This document shows, one piece after another, positions 5,968-27,877 of a DNA stretch of 44,207 nt. The notes beneath the pieces were generated by a model. The model saw only the letters and a list, made by a program, of their open reading frames with translations, searched no databases and was not told where the DNA came from. The first letter of the stretch is position 1. Each line of letters starts with the position of its first letter. The DNA is from a virus (lineage: Duplodnaviria; Heunggongvirae; Uroviricota; Caudoviricetes), in the IMG/VR virus record IMGVR_UViG_638341086_000016; one strand, given 5' to 3'. The position numbers and the translations under genes are program-made.

Positions 5968-6647
5968 TCATGACTGTGCTGCAAAGCTCAGCGCGTCTTC
6001 CAGCGCCGCAAACGGATCCACCTCCGGCTTATCCTCATCCTCGCCCCAGCAGAGCATGGCGTCCTTCAGTGCAACATTCATCCCCTGTGCCCCGAAAACC
6101 GCTTTCACGATCTGTGCATTACGGATATCCCCGCGCTCATCACCCAGCGGGGACACCCTGTCAAACTCCATCCACATCATCGCCTCGCTCGCACTCAGGC
6201 TGTGCCGCAGTTCGGATAAGGTGCGCCCCAGACGGAGCGCAAGTCGCATCAGAAAGCGAATTTCCGGGCGGGCTACTTTTTTCTGGCCGACTCTGCATCA
6301 GCGATCAGTTCCAGTGCCTGACGCAGCAACCGGGCATGTACCGGACCATAGACGGCCAGCACCTGCTCACGGTCGTCCGGAGTGAACACCCGTTGCAGGT
6401 CCGTATCACACAGGACATCGCAGAACAGCGTCACATCCGCTTCCAGGTTACGGCGGGTTTTCGCCACCACCGACAGGGTATCGTCATCCTCTCCATCACC
6501 ATTGAGCACTTCCTGCCACAGATACCAGGCCTCTGCCGAAGGCTCCCGCAACACCACGCTGACATTTCCCCATTCCGGCACCTTCACCGTTTTATGACGG
6601 AACCCCGACAGTCTGGCCAGCGCCAGTGTTTTCAGATCTTTTGCCAT
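5968..6647 (-). CDS. tail assembly chaperone GT, -1 programmed frameshift fusion (G plus T extension 5968..6249)
   Basis: After a -1 slip at AAAAAAG (about 6276..6282) the reading continues KKVARPEIRFLMRLALRL... into the 93-aa T frame; arrangement matches lambda G/GT. Confidence 0.75.
6273..6647 (-). CDS. G: tail assembly chaperone G
   Basis: 124 aa, acidic; ends ...ADAESARKK-stop with slippery heptamer A-AAA-AAG directly before the TAG stop. Confidence 0.85.
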   Translation of the reverse strand: MAKDLKTLALARLSGFRHKTVKVPEWGNVSVVLREPSAEAWYLWQEVLNGDGEDDDTLSVVAKTRRNLEADVTLFCDVLCDTDLQRVFTPDDREQVLAVYGPVHARLLRQALELIADAESARKK

Positions 6648-17846: not shown

Positions 17847-18328
17847 GTATCCTCCGGATAATAAAAAGCCAGCTTAGTGCACTGAGTGCGGATATATTCC
17901 TGCGCCCCTTCCAGCTGCTTCTGCATTGTCATCAACCGTTCTCTGAGGATGAAATAATCCCGTTCAGCGGTGTCTGCCAGTCGGGGGCCGGTTGCATTAT
18001 CCACGCCGGAGGTGCCGGTGGCTTCACGCACGGTACCGGAGCAGGTGGCGTTGATCCGCAGGCGCTTACGACCAGCGGCAACATCAGCACGCAGAGTTTC
18101 ATTTTCAGCTCTCGCATCGGCTAATTCCCTCGAGTATTTTGCATCGAGCGCAGCAACATCGCGCTGGCGCACCTGCATATCAGTAATGGTTGCGTTTGCC
18201 AGCTCCAGCTCTCTGGCTTTTTTATCGCGCTGCGCTTTGTAGGTGATGACGTTATCGCGGTAATGATTCAGCCCCAGACTAAGCGCACCACAGACCACCA
18301 GCAGAATAACGGTAAACGCGGAAAGCAT
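17843..18328 (-). CDS. Rz: i-spanin Rz
   Basis: Internal start MLSAFTVILLVVCGALSLGLNHYRDNVITYKAQRDK... of track ORF 17843..18436; strongly lambda Rz-like including C-terminal ...RLADTAERDYFILRERLMTMQKQLEG. Confidence 0.85.
   Translation of the reverse strand: MLSAFTVILLVVCGALSLGLNHYRDNVITYKAQRDKKARELELANATITDMQVRQRDVAALDAKYSRELADARAENETLRADVAAGRKRLRINATCSGTVREATGTSGVDNATGPRLADTAERDYFILRERLMTMQKQLEGAQEYIRTQCTKLAFYYPEDT
17932..18117 (-). CDS. Rz1: o-spanin Rz1 (embedded in Rz, +1 frame)
   Basis: 61 aa MRELKMKLCVLMLPLVVSACGSTPPAPVPCVKPPAPPAWIMQPAPDWQTPLNGIISSSENG; lipobox VSAC, proline-rich, near-identical in pattern to lambda Rz1. Confidence 0.85.
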   Translation of the reverse strand: MRELKMKLCVLMLPLVVSACGSTPPAPVPCVKPPAPPAWIMQPAPDWQTPLNGIISSSENG

Positions 18329-18565
18329 TCGGTTTATGCTCACCCCACCAGCCCTGCCGAAGTCAACGCCATCCAGGTTATGGAAAGAAAAAGAACAACC
18401 AGCATTAGTGAAAATGAAATACCGACGATTACACAAAGGCCCTTCGCCAGCATTATGAGTTTGTCTGACATCTTTACCCCTTAATAGCAGTAATTAACCG
18501 GGCAACCACCCATAAAAACGGAATCAGCCAGACCAGCAAAAATTTCCAGTCCGTTTTTATCATCT

Positions 18566-19261
18566 TCATGCTGCGGTAGCTCTCCATGCAGCAAGCAGAC
18601 CAGCAATCCACTGAACACCTTTTGGGGTGAATTTAACCTGCGTAAAAGCATGACCATTGCCCGCCTCGCCCGTTTTCACGCTAAACCGCCCCGCATCCAG
18701 GTGATGCGAGTAAGGCGTCATTTTTCCAGCGAGGCGATACATTATTCCGTTCTCCAACAAAAACAGCCGGAAATCGGTTTCTTTGATACCGAGTAACTTA
18801 GCAACTTCCCGGAATCCCATCAGACCAGATACTTCAACATAGTTATCAACAAATTCAGCCTTCGGCGCTGCTATTGCCAGTTGATTTTCCAGCACTGCTT
18901 TCTGTTCAGCCAGTTTTGCCGCAAATCGCAACGCCTCAGGTAAAGTCCGGGGGATCTGAATACCATGCATCGCTTTGAGTCTTGCCAGCACAGAACGACG
19001 AACGGCCTTTGACTCCCTCATGCCAACGAGCATCATCTGGTCAAAATCCAGATCATAGTATGCCGTTCTTGTCTGGTTATTGTTTAACCGGAATTTTTTT
19101 CCGGTTCCATCAAGCTCTAGCTCATCCTCAATTTTTGCAAGAAACTTACGCGGTTCATGAGGGACTTCTCCGGCTTCTGCCCGGGCTGGATTAATAATGT
19201 TATTCAGAAAATCCAGACTACTCATGGATATTTCATGATCGACAGAAATCATCTCTTTCAT
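18566..19261 (-). CDS. antirepressor-like protein with C-terminal KilAC-type domain, located inside the lysis cassette
   Basis: 231 aa; C-terminal region ...PEALRFAAKLAEQKAVLENQLAIAAPKAEFVD... is paralogous to the C-terminus of the Rha/Roi-like protein at 26128..26856. Confidence 0.65.
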   Translation of the reverse strand: MKEMISVDHEISMSSLDFLNNIINPARAEAGEVPHEPRKFLAKIEDELELDGTGKKFRLNNNQTRTAYYDLDFDQMMLVGMRESKAVRRSVLARLKAMHGIQIPRTLPEALRFAAKLAEQKAVLENQLAIAAPKAEFVDNYVEVSGLMGFREVAKLLGIKETDFRLFLLENGIMYRLAGKMTPYSHHLDAGRFSVKTGEAGNGHAFTQVKFTPKGVQWIAGLLAAWRATAA

Positions 19262-19534: not shown

Positions 19535-20068
19535 TTATCTGTCGATTCCCCAGCACGCCAGAGCGCTCTCCTGGTCACGACGGGATACCTGACCATAACA
19601 GTTATTTGAGCGAATACGGCAGTCTCTGCCACCGTCCTTAATCCACCAGCGAATCGCTTCGCAGGCACCTTTTCGATCTCCTGCATTAATTCGTTTATAA
19701 AACGTCGACGGGAAACACTTACCTGGGCCAATGTTGTAAGGACAGAATGACGCAATACCCGCTTTCTGGGGTTCAGTCAGTGGCACTCTGATGTTTTTCG
19801 CCACCCATGCCAGCGCCTTATCACGTTCAATGGCGTTAACCTGGTCGCATTTTTCCTTCGACAACTTCATGCCCGGAACGACAGGTTTACCATCCACCAG
19901 GATGGCACCGCGGCAGATGGTCCAGATACCCGCGCCATCACGGTATGCCGTGGTGTGGTTACCTTCCTTTTCATCCAGAAACTGGTCGAGGATTTCAGGC
20001 GCAGGCGCACCTGCGGCAATCAGCGCCAGAACGGCAGCCGACAGGCCGTATTTGATTTTGGTGTTCAT
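19535..20068 (-). CDS. R: SAR endolysin (T4-lysozyme-type, glycoside hydrolase 24)
   Basis: 177 aa; N-terminal signal-anchor-release helix YGLSAAVLALIAAGAPAP followed by catalytic E...D...T spacing (EKEGNHTTAYRDGAGIWT); resembles phage 21 R. Confidence 0.9.
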   Translation of the reverse strand: MNTKIKYGLSAAVLALIAAGAPAPEILDQFLDEKEGNHTTAYRDGAGIWTICRGAILVDGKPVVPGMKLSKEKCDQVNAIERDKALAWVAKNIRVPLTEPQKAGIASFCPYNIGPGKCFPSTFYKRINAGDRKGACEAIRWWIKDGGRDCRIRSNNCYGQVSRRDQESALACWGIDR

Positions 20069-20118
20069 GGATATTTATCAGGGTTTATCGATTTCAAATC
20101 CCTGGATATGTTAAGTCT

Positions 20119-20463
20119 TCAGGCCAGCGGTGGAGTCTTCAGAGAACCAGTAATTATTCCCGGTAGTTTTCCTCTGTAGATTATCAACACATCCTGCGCC
20201 TCTAAAATGATGGGCCGCTTTTCCGGCAACGGACCATCCCCTTCACATAACCCGGCAGCAACATCCATGAAAAACTGCTTCGCCTGCTTTTTCGCCTCCG
20301 CTTCGTAAAACTCCAGCGTGGCACCTTCAGTACGGTCAAGACTAATCGCCACATCTGGCAACAACAGTGACGGATACCCACCAATTTCCAGTGCCACAGT
20401 AACAGTAATCTTATCCGGGTAATTATTTATCCCTTTAACAACCAGTTCGTATTTTTTCTTCAT
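20119..20463 (-). CDS. hypothetical protein inserted between holin and endolysin
   Basis: 114-aa ORF with no TM segment, tightly packed between S and R; no family recognised. Confidence 0.5.
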   Translation of the reverse strand: MKKKYELVVKGINNYPDKITVTVALEIGGYPSLLLPDVAISLDRTEGATLEFYEAEAKKQAKQFFMDVAAGLCEGDGPLPEKRPIILEAQDVLIIYRGKLPGIITGSLKTPPLA

Positions 20464-20467
20464 CGCT

Positions 20468-20674
20468 TTACTCTCCCCGCGCCGCCTTACGCTTATCTTC
20501 TTTAATCTTGAAATAAAGGTTTGTCAGATACGTCAGCAGGCCAAACAGCAGACTCCCCAGCACACCTATCGCCACCCACTGGGACGGAGAGACTTTGTCC
20601 AGCAGCTGCAGTAACCAGTATCCCGTCCCCACCGCTGACGTGGTGTATGACACACCCGTTGTGATTTTTTCCAT
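20468..20674 (-). CDS. S: holin (phage-21 S-type pinholin)
   Basis: 68 aa, two hydrophobic helices and basic tail ...[42 protein letters not shown], close to S21. Confidence 0.9.
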
Positions 20675-20968
20675 CTGATGTATGTCTCCGTCACCGCCGA
20701 CAGAAAATGAAAGTAAAGGAAAACAAAAAGCCGCCAGTGTCGCCCACTGACGGCCAACGCCGGGAGCCGTGATTATGGCATTCAGGCTCTGCTAAAAATG
20801 CCAGATAACATTCCGGCTCCCCCCCCTGATTCAGGTTATAAATGACACAATATCTTGACAACATCCGTCACTATCTGTCAGAAAATGTACTGCCAGATAT
20901 AAGTATCATGTGAAGTACATCTACCCGTTTTAGCCAGCGTCCTTCAGAGTGGGCGCTGGCTTTTTTTA

Positions 20969-22819
20969 TTATGCTGCGGGTGCATTTATCTCCAGCACCA
21001 GACTTTCTATCTCAACGCCATACGCTGCATTTTTTGTAACATCCGTCAGCGTCAGCGCATTCAGCCCCAGTGTCAGACTGTCTTTTATGACCTGGAATGC
21101 CGGGCCAGCCACTCCATTCAGTTTCGGAGTAACCGTGGCACTGCCGGCGGTGAACACCAGCTCCAGCGTCTGCCAGTCGTTACCGTAATCGCCGAACTCC
21201 CCCAGCTTCGTGTTTCCGNCTTTCCTGTGATGCATCAGATTCACTCTGCCGTCAGTGGTCTGAGTNAAGTACGACATCAGGAACGGATTACCGGTACCNG
21301 TCATCGCCACACCATCAGGAACGGGAGCNTCCGTATACAGATAAATCCCCAGCCCGAACTGATNGTTGGTCAGTGCGCCTGACAGGCGGAACTTACAGGT
21401 CAGTCTGCCGCCCTGTGTCAGCAGGGTAATTGTGTCATCCACCGGATGCGTCAGGGACCAGGNTTTATTGCTCTGCTTGGNGATCTTAAATACACCATCT
21501 GACAACTGAATTCCGCCATCCTTAATGCTCCAGCCCTGCGCAGCAGCCTCTCCGGCTGTCGGCAGCAGGGAGATTGTACGGACGGATGTATCTTCAGACG
21601 GCCCTGATGGTGTGTCATCGCCGGGAGAGGGTTTGATCTCCGGGGCTTTACCGCTGATGAAGGCGCTGGTTCGACCAACTGCGTTCAGAATAGCAGTTGC
21701 CAGACGATCAGGAATAATGCCCCTGCGCGCCCATGAACTGAAATGTGTCGGACGATTTGACGATACCCAATTACCATTACTACGGGATTGCGCGCCGTAA
21801 TAACCTGCATCAGCAATATCCGGGTCTTCTGCCGGTAAGTTGGTGGGCGTGTTGTTGCCGTTACCGTCTGTCATGAAGGGCACAAAATAAACGCCCTCAC
21901 TCTCCCTGTTTTTATACCCGCCGTACACGGTGTCGTACTGGGTAGCGTATGTATTTTTCCAGTAATACGTCGTGTCACCACAAATCCACGGCACATCTGC
22001 AGCACTGCCACCATGGCACTGCGCGTTAAACACGGAGAGGTCAGCACGAAACTGTGTCAGCATGGCTGTAAACAGCGCAGGTTGCTGTGCGTGGGTGGCG
22101 GCGCTCATGTCAAACTCACCCTGCATCCAGCAGACGGCCAGCAGAACGTTTTTGGGATTTTTCTGCAATGCCGCTTTTGTGCGGGAAATCAGATCCTGAT
22201 ATAACGGCTTGCCCACCCCCCAGCGTGCCGAATCCTGACTGGCCCCCGTGGACTCGCTGAATGTCCCCTCCGCGCCCTGGGTAAATGCCGAACCACCACG
22301 ACAGCATGGTACCAGCAGGATCCCCGCGTTATTCGGGATATACGGGAGCAGTTTTTTGGCAATATGTAAACCCTGGCCGACACAGCCGTACTGCCCTTTG
22401 CTCAGGTCAGCCCTCGGATGATTCAGCGTACTCATATCCTGCACATCATGCAGACAGTGGTCAGCCGGAATAATATCGTTATATCTGCAGGCAGCCCCGC
22501 CCGGCGTCACTGTACTGCGGCGCGCCAGCTGTTTAATGCGCGGATCCGGAGCATCGTATGAATCCGGCAGCGGAAGCCCTTCACCGTAAGCCATGGCATT
22601 GGACTGCCCGGCCAGTACGATGACGTAGTACCAATCCGGCTCAGATGAAGGGCCGACCTGTGGCTCTCCTTCAATAGCCACCGCCTGCATCAGTGTGTAC
22701 GGCGTAATGGCAACCGGTCCGCCGTATGGCTGCCAGCCCTCTTTCAGTTTGTGTGTCAGCTTTTCCGCAAGGTCTGACGGCGACGCCGCCCTGACAACAT
22801 CATAATGTTTAATCGACAT
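20969..22819 (-). CDS. nanS-p: prophage sialate O-acetylesterase NanS-p (DUF1737 N-domain plus SASA/SGNH esterase domain)
   Basis: 616 aa; N-terminus MSIKHYDVV...; esterase motif VLAGQSNAMAYGEG; position between holin and the stx-equivalent slot; several X residues from ambiguous bases. Confidence 0.8.
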   Translation of the reverse strand: MSIKHYDVVRAASPSDLAEKLTHKLKEGWQPYGGPVAITPYTLMQAVAIEGEPQVGPSSEPDWYYVIVLAGQSNAMAYGEGLPLPDSYDAPDPRIKQLARRSTVTPGGAACRYNDIIPADHCLHDVQDMSTLNHPRADLSKGQYGCVGQGLHIAKKLLPYIPNNAGILLVPCCRGGSAFTQGAEGTFSESTGASQDSARWGVGKPLYQDLISRTKAALQKNPKNVLLAVCWMQGEFDMSAATHAQQPALFTAMLTQFRADLSVFNAQCHGGSAADVPWICGDTTYYWKNTYATQYDTVYGGYKNRESEGVYFVPFMTDGNGNNTPTNLPAEDPDIADAGYYGAQSRSNGNWVSSNRPTHFSSWARRGIIPDRLATAILNAVGRTSAFISGKAPEIKPSPGDDTPSGPSEDTSVRTISLLPTAGEAAAQGWSIKDGGIQLSDGVFKIXKQSNKXWSLTHPVDDTITLLTQGGRLTCKFRLSGALTNXQFGLGIYLYTXAPVPDGVAMXGTGNPFLMSYXTQTTDGRVNLMHHRKXGNTKLGEFGDYGNDWQTLELVFTAGSATVTPKLNGVAGPAFQVIKDSLTLGLNALTLTDVTKNAAYGVEIESLVLEINAPAA

Positions 22820-22899
22820 CGAATTTCTCCCGTGTACAGGAACAGAGTTAAAAAGCCGGAATCAAATCGCAGGATGAACATCTGCCAGTGGCTGGTCGT

Positions 22900-22926
22900 A
22901 AAAAAAAGGCCGCGCCATGCGCAGCC
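22900..22926 (-). terminator. strong intrinsic terminator upstream of nanS-p
   Basis: 8-bp stem GGCUGCGC-AUG-GCGCGGCC (one G-U pair) followed by U8-9 on the - strand. Confidence 0.6.
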
Positions 22927-23141
22927 GGAAATAAAGGGATAACGATGATAGTTTGAGAAAAACAGAAATAACACTTTTGTGGCAAAGCATGGTGCCGGGT
23001 GCCTCCCGGTGAATTCAGCCGGTGTCACTGAACCCGCGTCGGCTTGCCTATAACATAATAAATGCTACCCACACCAGTCGCCCCTCCGCACAGGGGGATT
23101 CACCATGCAGAAGTGTTTTTAATAAACAGCAAACAAAAAAA

Positions 23142-23312
23142 TCAAGCATTATGCAGGCTGTTTCTTTTTATCACCGGCCACAGCAATACCACAATGCCGC
23201 AGACCAGCACCCCATCCGCCAGCACCGACATGATTCTGCTGGTGAAATCCACCATCACCACCAGAAACAGCAGGAGTGCAGCCACAGCCAGGCGCAGTTT
23301 TACCGTCACAGG
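23142..23312 (-). CDS. small hydrophobic two-helix membrane protein (about 56 aa), translationally coupled to the TerB-like gene
   Basis: Hand-translated: GTG overlapping the TerB-like stop (GTGA) then VTVKLRLAVAALLLFLVVMVDFTSRIMSVLADGVLVCGIVVLLWPVIKRNSLHNA; below the 60-aa track cutoff. Confidence 0.4.
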   Translation of the reverse strand, partial: PVTVKLRLAVAALLLFLVVMVDFTSRIMSVLADGVLVCGIVVLLWPVIKRNSLHNA

Positions 23313-23767
23313 TGATTCTCCAGACGAAGACCCAGAACACCGGCAATCTCTTCCAGCACCTTACACTCTTCCGGCTCAATTTCGCCTTCGGCCTCCGCAA
23401 TGGCCACCGCCACATCCAGCACATCTTCCGCTTCACGCGTATCGTGTTTCACATCCTCGATCTCACGTAACGCCGCACGACGACCAATTTTAAAGTTCGT
23501 ATCCAGCTGACCGATAATGGTTGCGCTCATCGCATTAATTTCTGACGTAAACGCGGACAGCGCTGGCTGATTACGCAGTACCTGTTCGATCTTCGCTTTC
23601 TCGGAAGCCTCACATTCACCATCTGCACAGGCCACCAGGTATGCGGCGTTAATCACCGCCTGTGCCAGATCGCGTTTTTCAAACTTTTTAATTTCCGTTG
23701 CCGCTCTGCGGGCTTTTTTTACCAAAAATACCAAACATCGTGACGTTCCTTTGGGTGGGTGAGCCAA
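23306..23767 (-). CDS. TerB-like (tellurite-resistance TerB family) protein; 5' end apparently frameshifted in an A7 run
   Basis: 153-aa track ORF with TerB-type LVACADGECEASEKAKIEQ block; the only RBS-preceded ATG (about 23738, AAAGGAAcgtcacg-ATG) is in another frame and stops after 16 codons at the A7 run (about 23713..23719). Confidence 0.6.
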   Translation of the reverse strand: MAHPPKGTSRCLVFLVKKARRAATEIKKFEKRDLAQAVINAAYLVACADGECEASEKAKIEQVLRNQPALSAFTSEINAMSATIIGQLDTNFKIGRRAALREIEDVKHDTREAEDVLDVAVAIAEAEGEIEPEECKVLEEIAGVLGLRLENHL

Positions 23768-23909
23768 CGCCCGGGAGCGATCTGCCCACAGAGAAAGTCA
23801 CACTGACCACTCCGTAAGCTCCCCCCCGAAAGGCTCTGTGGTTGGTATGCGCCGGGCGTGGCGCGGATACAAAAAAGGTCCGCAAAAGCGAGCGAGGGAA
23901 AATAAGTGT

Positions 23910-23986
23910 GGTGCGTTGTACTGGGTTCGAACCAGTGACCGATTGCTTAGAAGGCTGGCGTTCTATCCCGATGAGCTAATGGCGGT
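23910..23986 (-). tRNA. tRNA-like sequence, Arg(UCU)-type anticodon loop, probably degenerate
   Basis: Reverse complement contains D-arm TAGCTCA...ATAGAAC, loop CTTCTAA and T-arm ACTGGTTCGAACCCAGT, but acceptor and anticodon stems do not pair in my reading. Confidence 0.4.
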
Positions 23987-24062
23987 TGGTGGCCCTTGCT
24001 GGATTTGAACCAGCGACCTGGCGATTATGAGTCGCTCGCTCTCACCACTGAGCTAAAGGGCC
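23987..24062 (-). tRNA. tRNA with anticodon CAU (Ile2/Met type, ileZ-like as in Stx-phage tRNA clusters)
   Basis: Reverse complement GGCCCTTTAGCTCAGTGGTGAGAGCGAGCGACTCATAATCGCCAGGTCGCTGGTTCAAATCCAGCAAGGGCCACCA folds as a cloverleaf (acceptor GGCCCTT/AAGGGCC, D-stem GCTC/GAGC, T-arm GCTGG-TTCAAAT-CCAGC), encoded CCA. Confidence 0.8.
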
Positions 24063-24071
24063 GAGCGCAGG

Positions 24072-24100
24072 ATGATAACGTTACGAAATCAATGTTGCAA
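24072..24100 (-). promoter_or_regulatory. candidate sigma-70 promoter directly upstream of the tRNA genes
   Basis: On - strand TTGCAA - 17 nt - TATCAT, with the -10 ending about 9 nt before the tRNA 5' end. Confidence 0.45.
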
Positions 24101-24282
24101 GAGTTCACAAATTCACTGATTCAAAATTATTCTTGTAAAAAATCTTTTAACGTCAGGCACAAAGAGCCTGTACATAGATTTGTGTAATTGCCTGATTTTG
24201 ATATGTTCAATCCAGCATCAAATGAAGGTTAATTTATGGACGAAAAACAGTTACAGGCTCTAATGACCTTTATACGATTGAC

Positions 24283-24375
24283 CCAAATAAAAAAAGCCAC
24301 CGTTGCAACTTAAGAGTCACTAACGGCAGCTTATGCGAATAGTGTTGCTCATTTGCTCAACGATGTCAACACGTT
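24283..24375 (-). promoter_or_regulatory. candidate late promoter region downstream of Q (-35 TTGACA at 24364..24369) with a U7-tailed weak hairpin (about 24290..24325)
   Basis: Perfect -35 hexamer just after the Q stop but no convincing -10; the hairpin CCGTT...AACGG followed by TTTTTTT could be a tR-prime-like terminator. Confidence 0.3.
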
Positions 24376-24864
24376 CTATGCTACATGTTTAATTTTCTCT
24401 ACACGTTTCCGGTTTTTAAACGCACTATCCAGAATCGGATAAATCATAAACAACGAGGCATTGAGGATTTCGTCAACTTCCCGTCGACAGGTTGCTAGCG
24501 ATGGTTTTTGAATGCGCCCGCCGCCCCGGCATAACATCTTGCGAGGTCTTGCGACGCTATGATAGTAAGATGCAATGGCGTGCTTGGAAGAGCCGTGGGC
24601 GTAGTAGCTGAGGAGGATGCCAAAGGCTTTCTTGTCAATGTACATGACGGAATCGACGACCTGAGAAATCAACATTCCATCATCATCATTACACATTGGC
24701 CTTGTCATAACTCTTCCCGGCTCCACGCTCTCCATGAATTTAGCTATTACGCTGCTCATGCGCTTTTCCAGACGACCTGAATAAACCCATGCGCCCCACA
24801 GTTCAAGCCAGCCATTCAGCCACTCATGCTGTTCTTTGGTGAGGTTTAGTTCTCTTATGCCCAC
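24376..24864 (-). CDS. Q: late antiterminator Q (phage-21/82-type)
   Basis: 162 aa; [11 protein letters not shown] block and Cys/His-rich middle typical of the antitermination-Q family; located between nin genes and the tRNA/lysis region. Confidence 0.8.
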
Positions 24865-27602: not shown

Positions 27603-27763
27603 AATGACCTCGCGTTTCGATAATTTTTACCTCGCCACCGTCAGGTGCTAATCATCGTGGTGGCGAACTGTGCGGGGTTAGCACTACCGGTCGAAACATC
27701 CGGCGAGCCTTTCGGCTCCCCCACACAGCCCGCCATAAATCGCGAATGTGACTGTGCTTAGCG

Positions 27764-27788
27764 CATAAAAAAACCGCCAGCGCGGTTA
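27764..27788 (-). terminator. terminator-like hairpin AACCGC-CAGC-GCGGTT plus U-run downstream of ninE
   Basis: Same 6-bp stem as at 5937 and 13650; A7 on + strand. Confidence 0.5.
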
Positions 27789-27877
27789 TGCACCGTTTCG
27801 ATATCCGGGGTGCTAATCCCGACGCCAGATTTTGCTGGCGCGTGAGGAATATAGCCCCGAATAAATCATCGCGTCAA

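Follow-up and report, generated by a model that had tools for sequence, protein, structure and literature searches.

A DUF1327/YdfR-family gene between the holin and SAR endolysin genes of a tailed-phage genome: a possible late accessory protein directed at host RNase E or RNA

RIII of phage T4 and LydB of phage P1 are soluble lysis regulators that are encoded next to holins, and RIII is a cytoplasmic antiholin co-factor. In phage 21, the antiholin is the 71-aa form of the holin. Dip of phiKZ, gp0.7 of T7 and Srd of T4 are phage proteins that bind or modulate RNase E, and the targets of Dip and gp0.7 are in its C-terminal scaffold. Classical morons have their own promoters and terminators and are expressed in the lysogen.

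In Escherichia coli K-12, YdfR (b1555, UniProt P76160, PF07041) is a 103-aa protein whose gene lies in the Qin prophage between those for the class II holin EssQ and the R21-type lysozyme RrrQ, and overlaps rrrQ by 4 nt. In the study of Gopel et al. (2026; PMC13232886), a two-hybrid screen yielded residues 1-72 of YdfR three times, a two-hybrid signal with Rne 1-597 was also obtained for the full-length protein, and Rne 1-598 co-eluted with Strep-YdfR in an eluate that held DNase-resistant nucleic acid. The same study describes YdfR as a stable, foldable and overproducible protein, whose overexpression in K-12 was non-toxic, changed very few transcripts and caused no growth or lysis phenotype, and names RapZ and RraA as host proteins that bind or modulate RNase E (Gopel et al., 2026). 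In one screen, overexpression of YdfR raised the MIC of streptomycin threefold (PMC12924614).

The window analyzed here, which is the whole stretch of 44,207 nt of DNA, contains a relative of K-12 ydfR on its minus strand at positions 20119-20463. Like K-12 ydfR, this gene is found between a class II holin gene and a gene for an R21-type lysozyme, with the same 4-nt junction to the holin gene, and its 114-aa product shares a core domain with K-12 YdfR. Unlike K-12 YdfR, in which an unrelated helical and His-rich tail follows residue 74, the window protein continues with a conserved PEKRP...GSLKTP module, and its gene is followed by a 50-nt gap.

The gene and its lysis cassette

The 114-aa CDS (12.4 kDa, pI 5.5) has an ATG start at position 20463 and a TGA stop codon at 20119-20121, and is supported by the ORF list, Pfam, phrog, RefSeq and dN/dS. 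Among 88 related loci there were 29 distinct 345-nt alleles, with dN/dS values mostly of 0.1-0.4; the comparison with a 63%-identical allele gave a dS of 0.89, a dN of 0.31 and a dN/dS of 0.35. Because the dN/dS values were 0.1-0.35, with more synonymous than non-synonymous changes per site, the ORF is a real coding gene under selection. On the plus strand opposite the ORF only chance ORFs of 33-34 aa were found, and a search of Rfam detected no RNA family either inside or beside it. The protein contains no transmembrane segment, as the earlier note on this DNA had claimed: its maximum Kyte-Doolittle(19) value is 1.18, compared to 1.83 in the holin.

The ORF is also placed as that note described, on the minus strand from 20463 to 20119 between a holin and an endolysin gene. 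The holin is a class II (phage 21 S-type) pinholin of 68 aa with a single start (20468-20674, minus strand; PF04971, E = 1.2e-32; aligned with EssQ, EssD and S of phage 86). Just upstream of the holin ATG (20675-20683, minus strand), the in-frame codon from which the 71-aa form would start is ATA in the window, so that no 71-aa product can be made, whereas that codon is ATG in K-12 EssQ and EssD (MKSM...) and in S of phage 86 (MYQM...). The endolysin is a SAR endolysin, an R21-type lysozyme of 177 aa (19535-20068, minus strand; PF00959, E = 3.6e-24; phrog_7, endolysin), and its N-terminal segment as translated is Gly/Ala-rich (YGLSAAVLALIAAGAPAP). A leader of 50 nt (20069-20118, minus strand) separates the stop codon of the 114-aa gene from the endolysin gene.

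The junction between the holin gene and the 114-aa gene (20464-20476, minus strand) consists of a Shine-Dalgarno sequence GGAG(AG) within the last holin codons (20476-20471), with GGAG 9 nt upstream of the ATG, the holin stop codon TAA (20470-20468) and the spacer AGCG (20467-20464). The tight placement behind the holin gene that was claimed before is thus confirmed, but the gap counted from the sequence is 4 nt rather than 5 nt. This 4-nt spacing is constant in all 86 related loci in which both genes could be placed (86/86), including that of K-12 Qin. The Shine-Dalgarno sequence inside the final holin codons together with the 4-nt spacer favors translational coupling, and translation of the 114-aa gene is probably coupled to that of the holin.

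No promoter-like site was found just upstream of the ORF, and within the CDS there are only two weak terminator-like matches. Between the ORF and either S or R we found no convincing terminator, and the flanking promoter- and terminator-like sites are not above chance. The placement requires transcription together with S and R, which bears out the proposed co-expression with the lysis genes. Strong terminator-like hairpins are present at 20729-20755 (minus strand) and 20932-20961 (plus strand), in the 294-nt gap between the holin gene and an upstream esterase gene. The minus-strand hairpin precedes the holin start by 55 nt, so that antitermination by Q is presumably needed for late transcripts to reach S, ydfR and R. 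The product would be a small soluble cytoplasmic protein that is made, together with S and R, from a Q-dependent late transcript.

Downstream of the endolysin gene, an anti-repressor-like gene (Ant/KilAC, 231 aa; 18566-19261, minus strand; PF03374, E = 1e-27; phrog_63) precedes the Rz i-spanin ORF (17843-18436, minus strand; PF03245, E = 2.5e-49), the true start of which is probably an internal ATG. The Rz1 o-spanin gene is embedded in Rz (17932-18117, minus strand; PF06085, E = 1.7e-21). An Ant gene is found between endolysin and Rz genes in phages YYZ-2008 and 86 as well. The GC content of the 114-aa ORF is 0.47, with a GC3 of 0.49, while the values in S, R and Rz are 0.52-0.53 and 0.55-0.64, respectively; this low GC content is a foreign-insert signature. 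Since the GC content of Ant is also 0.47, the lysis cassette of this phage group is interrupted by two foreign accessory genes.

Family membership and architecture of the protein

The 114-aa protein matches Pfam PF07041 (DUF1327) over residues 1-112 with E = 4.7e-46 and 155.4 bits (cut-off 25) and phrog_406 with E = 1.4e-63, and a gene that is 99.4% identical in DNA sequence is named "YdfR family protein" in RefSeq. Its membership in the DUF1327/YdfR family is thus virtually certain, and the previous assertion that it has no recognizable family must be rejected: the family is an already known, annotated and catalogued prophage family and the gene is not an orphan. No NCBIfam model matches the ORF.

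BLASTP against K-12 YdfR gave 47% identity over 74 aa (residues 1-74; E = 1e-23) and no similarity beyond residue 74. Together with AF2 and profile matches, this delimits an N-terminal core domain of codons 1-76 (20236-20463, minus strand), which is acidic (pI 4.85) and homologous to residues 1-74 of K-12 YdfR and to stand-alone relatives of 72-86 aa. The AF2 model, which was built with an alignment of 31 sequences, has beta strands at residues 5-14, 18-27 and 38-43 and a long helix at 50-76, with block-mean pLDDT values of 73-92 over residues 1-70 and below 50 for residues 76-114. Residues Y5, L7, V9, Y53, E54 and A57 of the core are invariant or nearly so. The remaining codons 77-114 (20122-20235, minus strand) encode a basic C-terminal module of 38 residues, PEKRPIILEAQDVLIIYRGKLPGIITGSLKTPPLA (pI 9.5; alignment A1), which is highly conserved in the E. 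coli and Shigella copies and is missing from K-12 YdfR and the stand-alone relatives. In alignment A1, E81, R83, P84, I86, L87, A89, Q90, G98-G102, I104, T105 and S107-K109 of this module are invariant. The protein would accordingly be built of an acidic beta-beta-beta-alpha core (residues 1-76) and a basic 38-residue module.

The structure-based homology search that the earlier note had suggested yielded no significant neighbor: Foldseek against PDB and BFVD returned none at E ≤ 0.001, and a family-profile sequence search of PDB returned no relative. A double-stranded RNA-binding domain (dsRBD) was considered, as the helix begins with KKQAK and K-12 YdfR co-purifies with RNA. We do not assign the protein to the dsRBDs, as the motif is not conserved, Pfam dsrm did not match, a comparison of the family profile with RNase III of E. 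coli by hhalign gave a probability of 0.06%, the core is an acidic domain, and the AF2 model lacks helix alpha-1 of the alpha-beta-beta-beta-alpha fold.

The 3' end of the gene carries a breakpoint with an 8-nt direct repeat, CTGAAGAC (20115-20142, minus strand; DNA alignment A6), the two copies of which (20135-20142 and 20115-20122) are 12 nt apart. YdfR-family proteins of 103, 110, 114, 148, 176, 183, 206, 268 or 329 aa were found, and the DNA of the variants of 110, 114, 148, 176, 183, 268 and 329 aa is collinear up to the first CTGAAGAC copy and then diverges. The 110-aa variant, found in two viral contigs (L071 and L072), lacks exactly one repeat and the 12-nt spacer. From this alignment, the repeat is probably a site of short-homology recombination or deletion. 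The C-terminal extensions found in the forms of 176-268 aa contain no domain that Pfam recognizes.

The breakpoint raises the question of whether the 114-aa form is a decaying and functionless relic that was left of the 176-329-aa proteins after a deletion between the short repeats. That all the variants diverge exactly at the repeat, that the last four codons and the stop codon of the window gene are within a repeat unit, and that frameshifted, duplicated and fused versions are found in the databases are consistent with such an origin. The 114-aa reading frame is, however, intact in 1,257 complete E. coli genomes (coverage ≥ 80%), and its dN/dS values of 0.1-0.4 are those given above for a gene under selection. 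In addition, forms of 103-116 aa are the commonest, and the 103-aa K-12 YdfR is a stable, foldable protein that can be overproduced (PMC13232886). A relic is thus highly improbable.

Occurrence of the gene and its relatives

Of 5,426 complete E. coli genomes, 2,922 contain DNA of the 114-aa gene, at 6,148 places in total and in up to 8 copies per genome. The holin type of the window was detectable at 13,905 places in 4,812 E. coli genomes, so that roughly half of such cassettes have a ydfR that is detectable by megablast and half do not. Among phage records, 418 match the cassette DNA and 101 encode the 114-aa protein, including H-19B, BP-4795, YYZ-2008 (gp44) and many Stx1a- and Stx2c-converting phages, in which the protein is 97-99% identical. 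In Stx2a phages, 124 records match the cassette DNA and only 2 encode the protein. The holin and SAR endolysin genes, which were previously said to be normally adjacent, are so in DLP12 of K-12, where essD and rrrD are found without ydfR, but the S-ydfR-R order is common as well, as exemplified by essQ-ydfR-rrrQ of Qin and by the phage records and genomes counted above.

The Stx phages YYZ-2008, BP-4795 and H-19B and the Stx1a/Stx2c-converting phages have the same neighbors as the window, i.e., nanS-p esterase, S, ydfR, R, ant and Rz, with essentially no differences. In the H-19B record (AF034975.3), the copy at 16464-16805 between S and R is a 99%-identical ORF that was never annotated. Phage 86, in contrast, has a 268-aa version of YdfR and a convergent gene. 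In Stx1a and Stx2c phages, expression of the 114-aa gene would coincide with Shiga toxin release and lysis and would use the same transcript.

A pattern-based scan with one genome per species found the gene only in Escherichia and Shigella and on two MAG contigs, labeled Veillonella parvula and Bacillota, that have loci of the K-12 Qin type and may be E. coli contigs that were mis-binned into MAGs. When 1.84 billion representative proteins were searched exhaustively with an HMM, only 90 matches were obtained. It was this search alone, not the species scan, that uncovered the wider DUF1327 relatives, which are stand-alone proteins of 72-86 aa that match profile positions 1-72; those named are from Citrobacter freundii, Pantoea, Cronobacter and Sodalis ligni.

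The stand-alone DUF1327 genes are located in late operons of lambdoid prophages, but not at the S-R junction. They are found after the tape-measure gene in Citrobacter, between gpM and gpL, between gpL and gpK, between Q and a class I holin gene (PF05106) in Pantoea, and after an Rz-like gene in Cronobacter. Co-occurrence with a holin gene is thus not obligate, as the relatives in Citrobacter, Sodalis and metagenomic prophages are between tail genes. That the distant relatives occupy other late-operon sites, usually together with a convergent gene, argues against a dedicated role in lysis. The comparison of cassettes across related prophages, which the earlier note had suggested, revealed a gene that is widespread and conserved, but also one that is dispensable and not tied to the lysis genes.

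These results bear on the suggestion made before that the protein is a lysis-timing regulator, i.e., a soluble cytoplasmic partner of the pinholin or the SAR endolysin that delays or sharpens hole formation as T4 RIII and P1 LydB do. Its likeness to RIII and LydB is that of a small cytoplasmic protein that is encoded with the lysis genes and co-expressed late, but there is no detectable relationship to either in sequence or fold, and in several phage lineages the DUF1327 core is not encoded near a holin. The position right behind the holin gene, with an invariant spacer in all placeable loci and the Shine-Dalgarno sequence in the holin gene, is what a lysis timer might have, and a function linked to the holin would also be compatible with a junction that is strictly the same in every E. 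coli copy. The 68-aa-only holin likewise leaves room for another lysis regulator, as it lacks the 71-aa antiholin form; K-12 EssQ and S of phage 86 nevertheless keep the 71-aa start in cassettes that have ydfR, so that ydfR and the dual start are not complementary. Of the seven independent contexts in which the family was found, three are in or beside lysis genes and four are among tail genes and far from any holin, and the holin next to the Pantoea relative is of an unrelated class. Also against a lysis timer are the lack of a transmembrane segment, the absence of ydfR from roughly half of the S21-type cassettes that could be detected in genomes of E. coli, and the Stx2a phages, which share the cassette DNA and almost never encode the protein. 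The Keio ydfR mutant scored as envelope-leaky (CPRG+) at 30°C in LB without salt (Paradis-Bleau et al., 2014; supplementary tables of PMC3879167), which would be consistent with a role in lysis, but the kan cassette immediately precedes rrrQ, the gene for the SAR endolysin, and polarity on rrrQ is a plausible cause. Overexpression of YdfR, moreover, had neither a growth nor a lysis phenotype (PMC13232886). A literature search found no paper on a role of the ydfR gene in lysis of Stx phages. Given these observations, the lysis-timing idea is weakened and we regard it as unlikely, although the protein is compact and soluble, as the earlier note described.

Further analyses revealed that nearly all DUF1327 genes except the short E. 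coli forms have a small convergent gene within a few to about 50 nt, which in some E. coli loci slightly overlaps the DUF1327 gene. In 10 of the 11 stand-alone loci whose DNA was examined, a small gene on the opposite strand is found 4-49 nt past the DUF1327 stop codon, and at least four families that are unrelated to each other are represented among these genes. In E. coli, those cassettes in which R is separated by a long gap contribute four more partner families (phrog_2411, 2572, 18136 and 1853), and one of the E. coli partner genes is annotated in RefSeq phage 86. Altogether, the partners represent eight or more unrelated families: phrog_25324, 18578, 10490, 2411, 2572, 18136 and 1853, and one orphan. 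The pattern is found on the minus strand of related loci L092 (754-966), L098 (4266-4553), L101 (4240-4545), L103 (1469-1765), L105 (4273-4821), L003 (4311-4589), L004 (4500-4766), L081 (3464-3727), L086 (3817-4131) and L107 (3317-3631). The copy in the window has no partner, with only the 50 nt to R. The recurring convergent partner genes are an uncharacterized pattern that may merit a separate study.

Another explanation is that the gene has a different accessory (moron) function, either as a late anti-defence factor, as the earlier note had suggested, or a superinfection-related factor, or as the constant half of a two-gene module with the convergent gene, of which the window copy would be a minimal form that lost its partner. 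The convergent genes in the stand-alone loci, the four further partner families in the long-gap E. coli cassettes, the low GC content of the gene and its 3' end, a breakpoint of recombination beyond which C-terminal extensions of many kinds are found, would be in line with such an accessory function. The variation of the partner next to a constant DUF1327 argues, however, against a specific protein pair, and the partner-less short form is the commonest (60 of 88 loci, a biased sample) and is itself under purifying selection. A PADLOC search, which covers models of defence and not of anti-defence, gave no match at E ≤ 1 for the 114-aa, 183-aa and 268-aa forms, and no convergent partner matches a defence model. 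An accessory function of these kinds is in our view rather doubtful.

Possible function and genomic setting

On balance, a late accessory protein with RNA or host RNase E as its target is better supported than a lysis timer. We propose that the 114-aa gene encodes a late-expressed accessory protein that modulates RNA turnover through contacts of its conserved core with RNase E or RNA, and we assign a probability of about 0.4 to this proposal. In this scheme, the core domain would, as in the K-12 homologue, bind to RNase E of the host in its catalytic N-terminal half and also bind RNA, be it directly or indirectly, and through this contact RNA turnover would be adjusted late in the lytic cycle. 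The gene itself would be an accessory, moron-like insertion in the cassette, like the Ant gene two genes downstream, and would be outside the lysis machinery.

Several observations are consistent with the accessory part of this proposal. As judged by sequence comparison, the core appears to be a conserved mobile unit that also occupies non-lysis positions in late operons, and the 114-aa gene is probably dispensable for lysis, given DLP12 and the 101 encoding records compared to the 418 phage records with cassette DNA. The two foreign inserts in the cassette and the many cassettes without ydfR argue that the gene is not a component of the lysis mechanism. Like the lambdoid late-operon morons bor and lom of lambda, it is a non-essential insert of lower GC content that is variably present between conserved late genes. 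Unlike classical morons, it lacks flanking signals of its own and is wired into the late transcript.

We infer the RNase E or RNA target from the homology of the binding region (47% identity), and likewise a consequence for mRNA decay. The RNase E binding of the K-12 homologue, which was reported in 2026 and did not feature in the earlier note, is the sole functional lead. If the K-12 result transfers, the protein would resemble the modulators of RNase E, i.e., RraA/RraB and RapZ of the host and the phage proteins Dip, gp0.7 and Srd, to none of which it has homology. It would also differ from Dip and gp0.7 in its site of contact, since the contact of YdfR is with the N-terminal, catalytic half of the enzyme rather than with the C-terminal scaffold.

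It should be noted that the binding was shown for the K-12 protein only, from which the window protein differs at 53% of the shared-domain positions and in its unrelated C-terminus. Given that the evidence in the accessible part of the report consists of a two-hybrid interaction and co-purification from lysates, the contact between YdfR and RNase E could be bridged by RNA, and given that very few transcripts changed upon overexpression, an effect on RNase E activity was not demonstrated there (PMC13232886). The pI of 4.85 of the core domain disfavors direct binding of RNA, and the fold searches without a significant neighbor also weigh against the RNase E model.

A more far-reaching version would join the two lines of evidence. 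In it, phages would carry the DUF1327 core as a ligand for the catalytic half of RNase E, and the DUF1327 gene, followed by an exchangeable convergent gene, would be the constant part of a small mobile unit that spreads through late operons of Enterobacterales prophages. The core would reprogram RNA decay late in infection, perhaps that of the unit's own antisense or convergent transcripts, with the window copy as the minimal, partner-less form; we consider this version quite improbable. Returning to the proposed accessory protein, if binding of RNase E holds, it would be a temperate-phage factor whose target is the main enzyme of mRNA decay, in its catalytic domain. The natural cassettes with and without ydfR make the RNase E idea easy to test.

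The esterase gene upstream of the holin gene (20969-22819, minus strand) encodes a 616-aa NanS-p-like protein of the SASA family and contains several N bases at about 21219-21480, which are X in the translation and reflect a problem of sequence quality. Only about 1.5 kb (22819-24376) lie between it and the next large ORFs that read leftward (24376-24864 and further ones), and these ORFs occupy the place of the Q region of related Stx phages. A match to the STnc100 sRNA (22951-23137, minus strand) and a tRNA-Met gene (23987-24062, minus strand) are found in this interval. As 22819-24376 has no room for an stx operon, the window looks like an Stx-phage-like prophage without stx. Elsewhere in the window, Rfam matches above the gathering score are the C4 antisense RNA with its a1/b1 targets and isrK (27656-27854, minus strand), the lambda cIII thermoregulator (36238-36296, plus strand) and the ALIL pseudoknot, a frameshift element of an IS3-family insertion sequence (42020-42136, minus strand).
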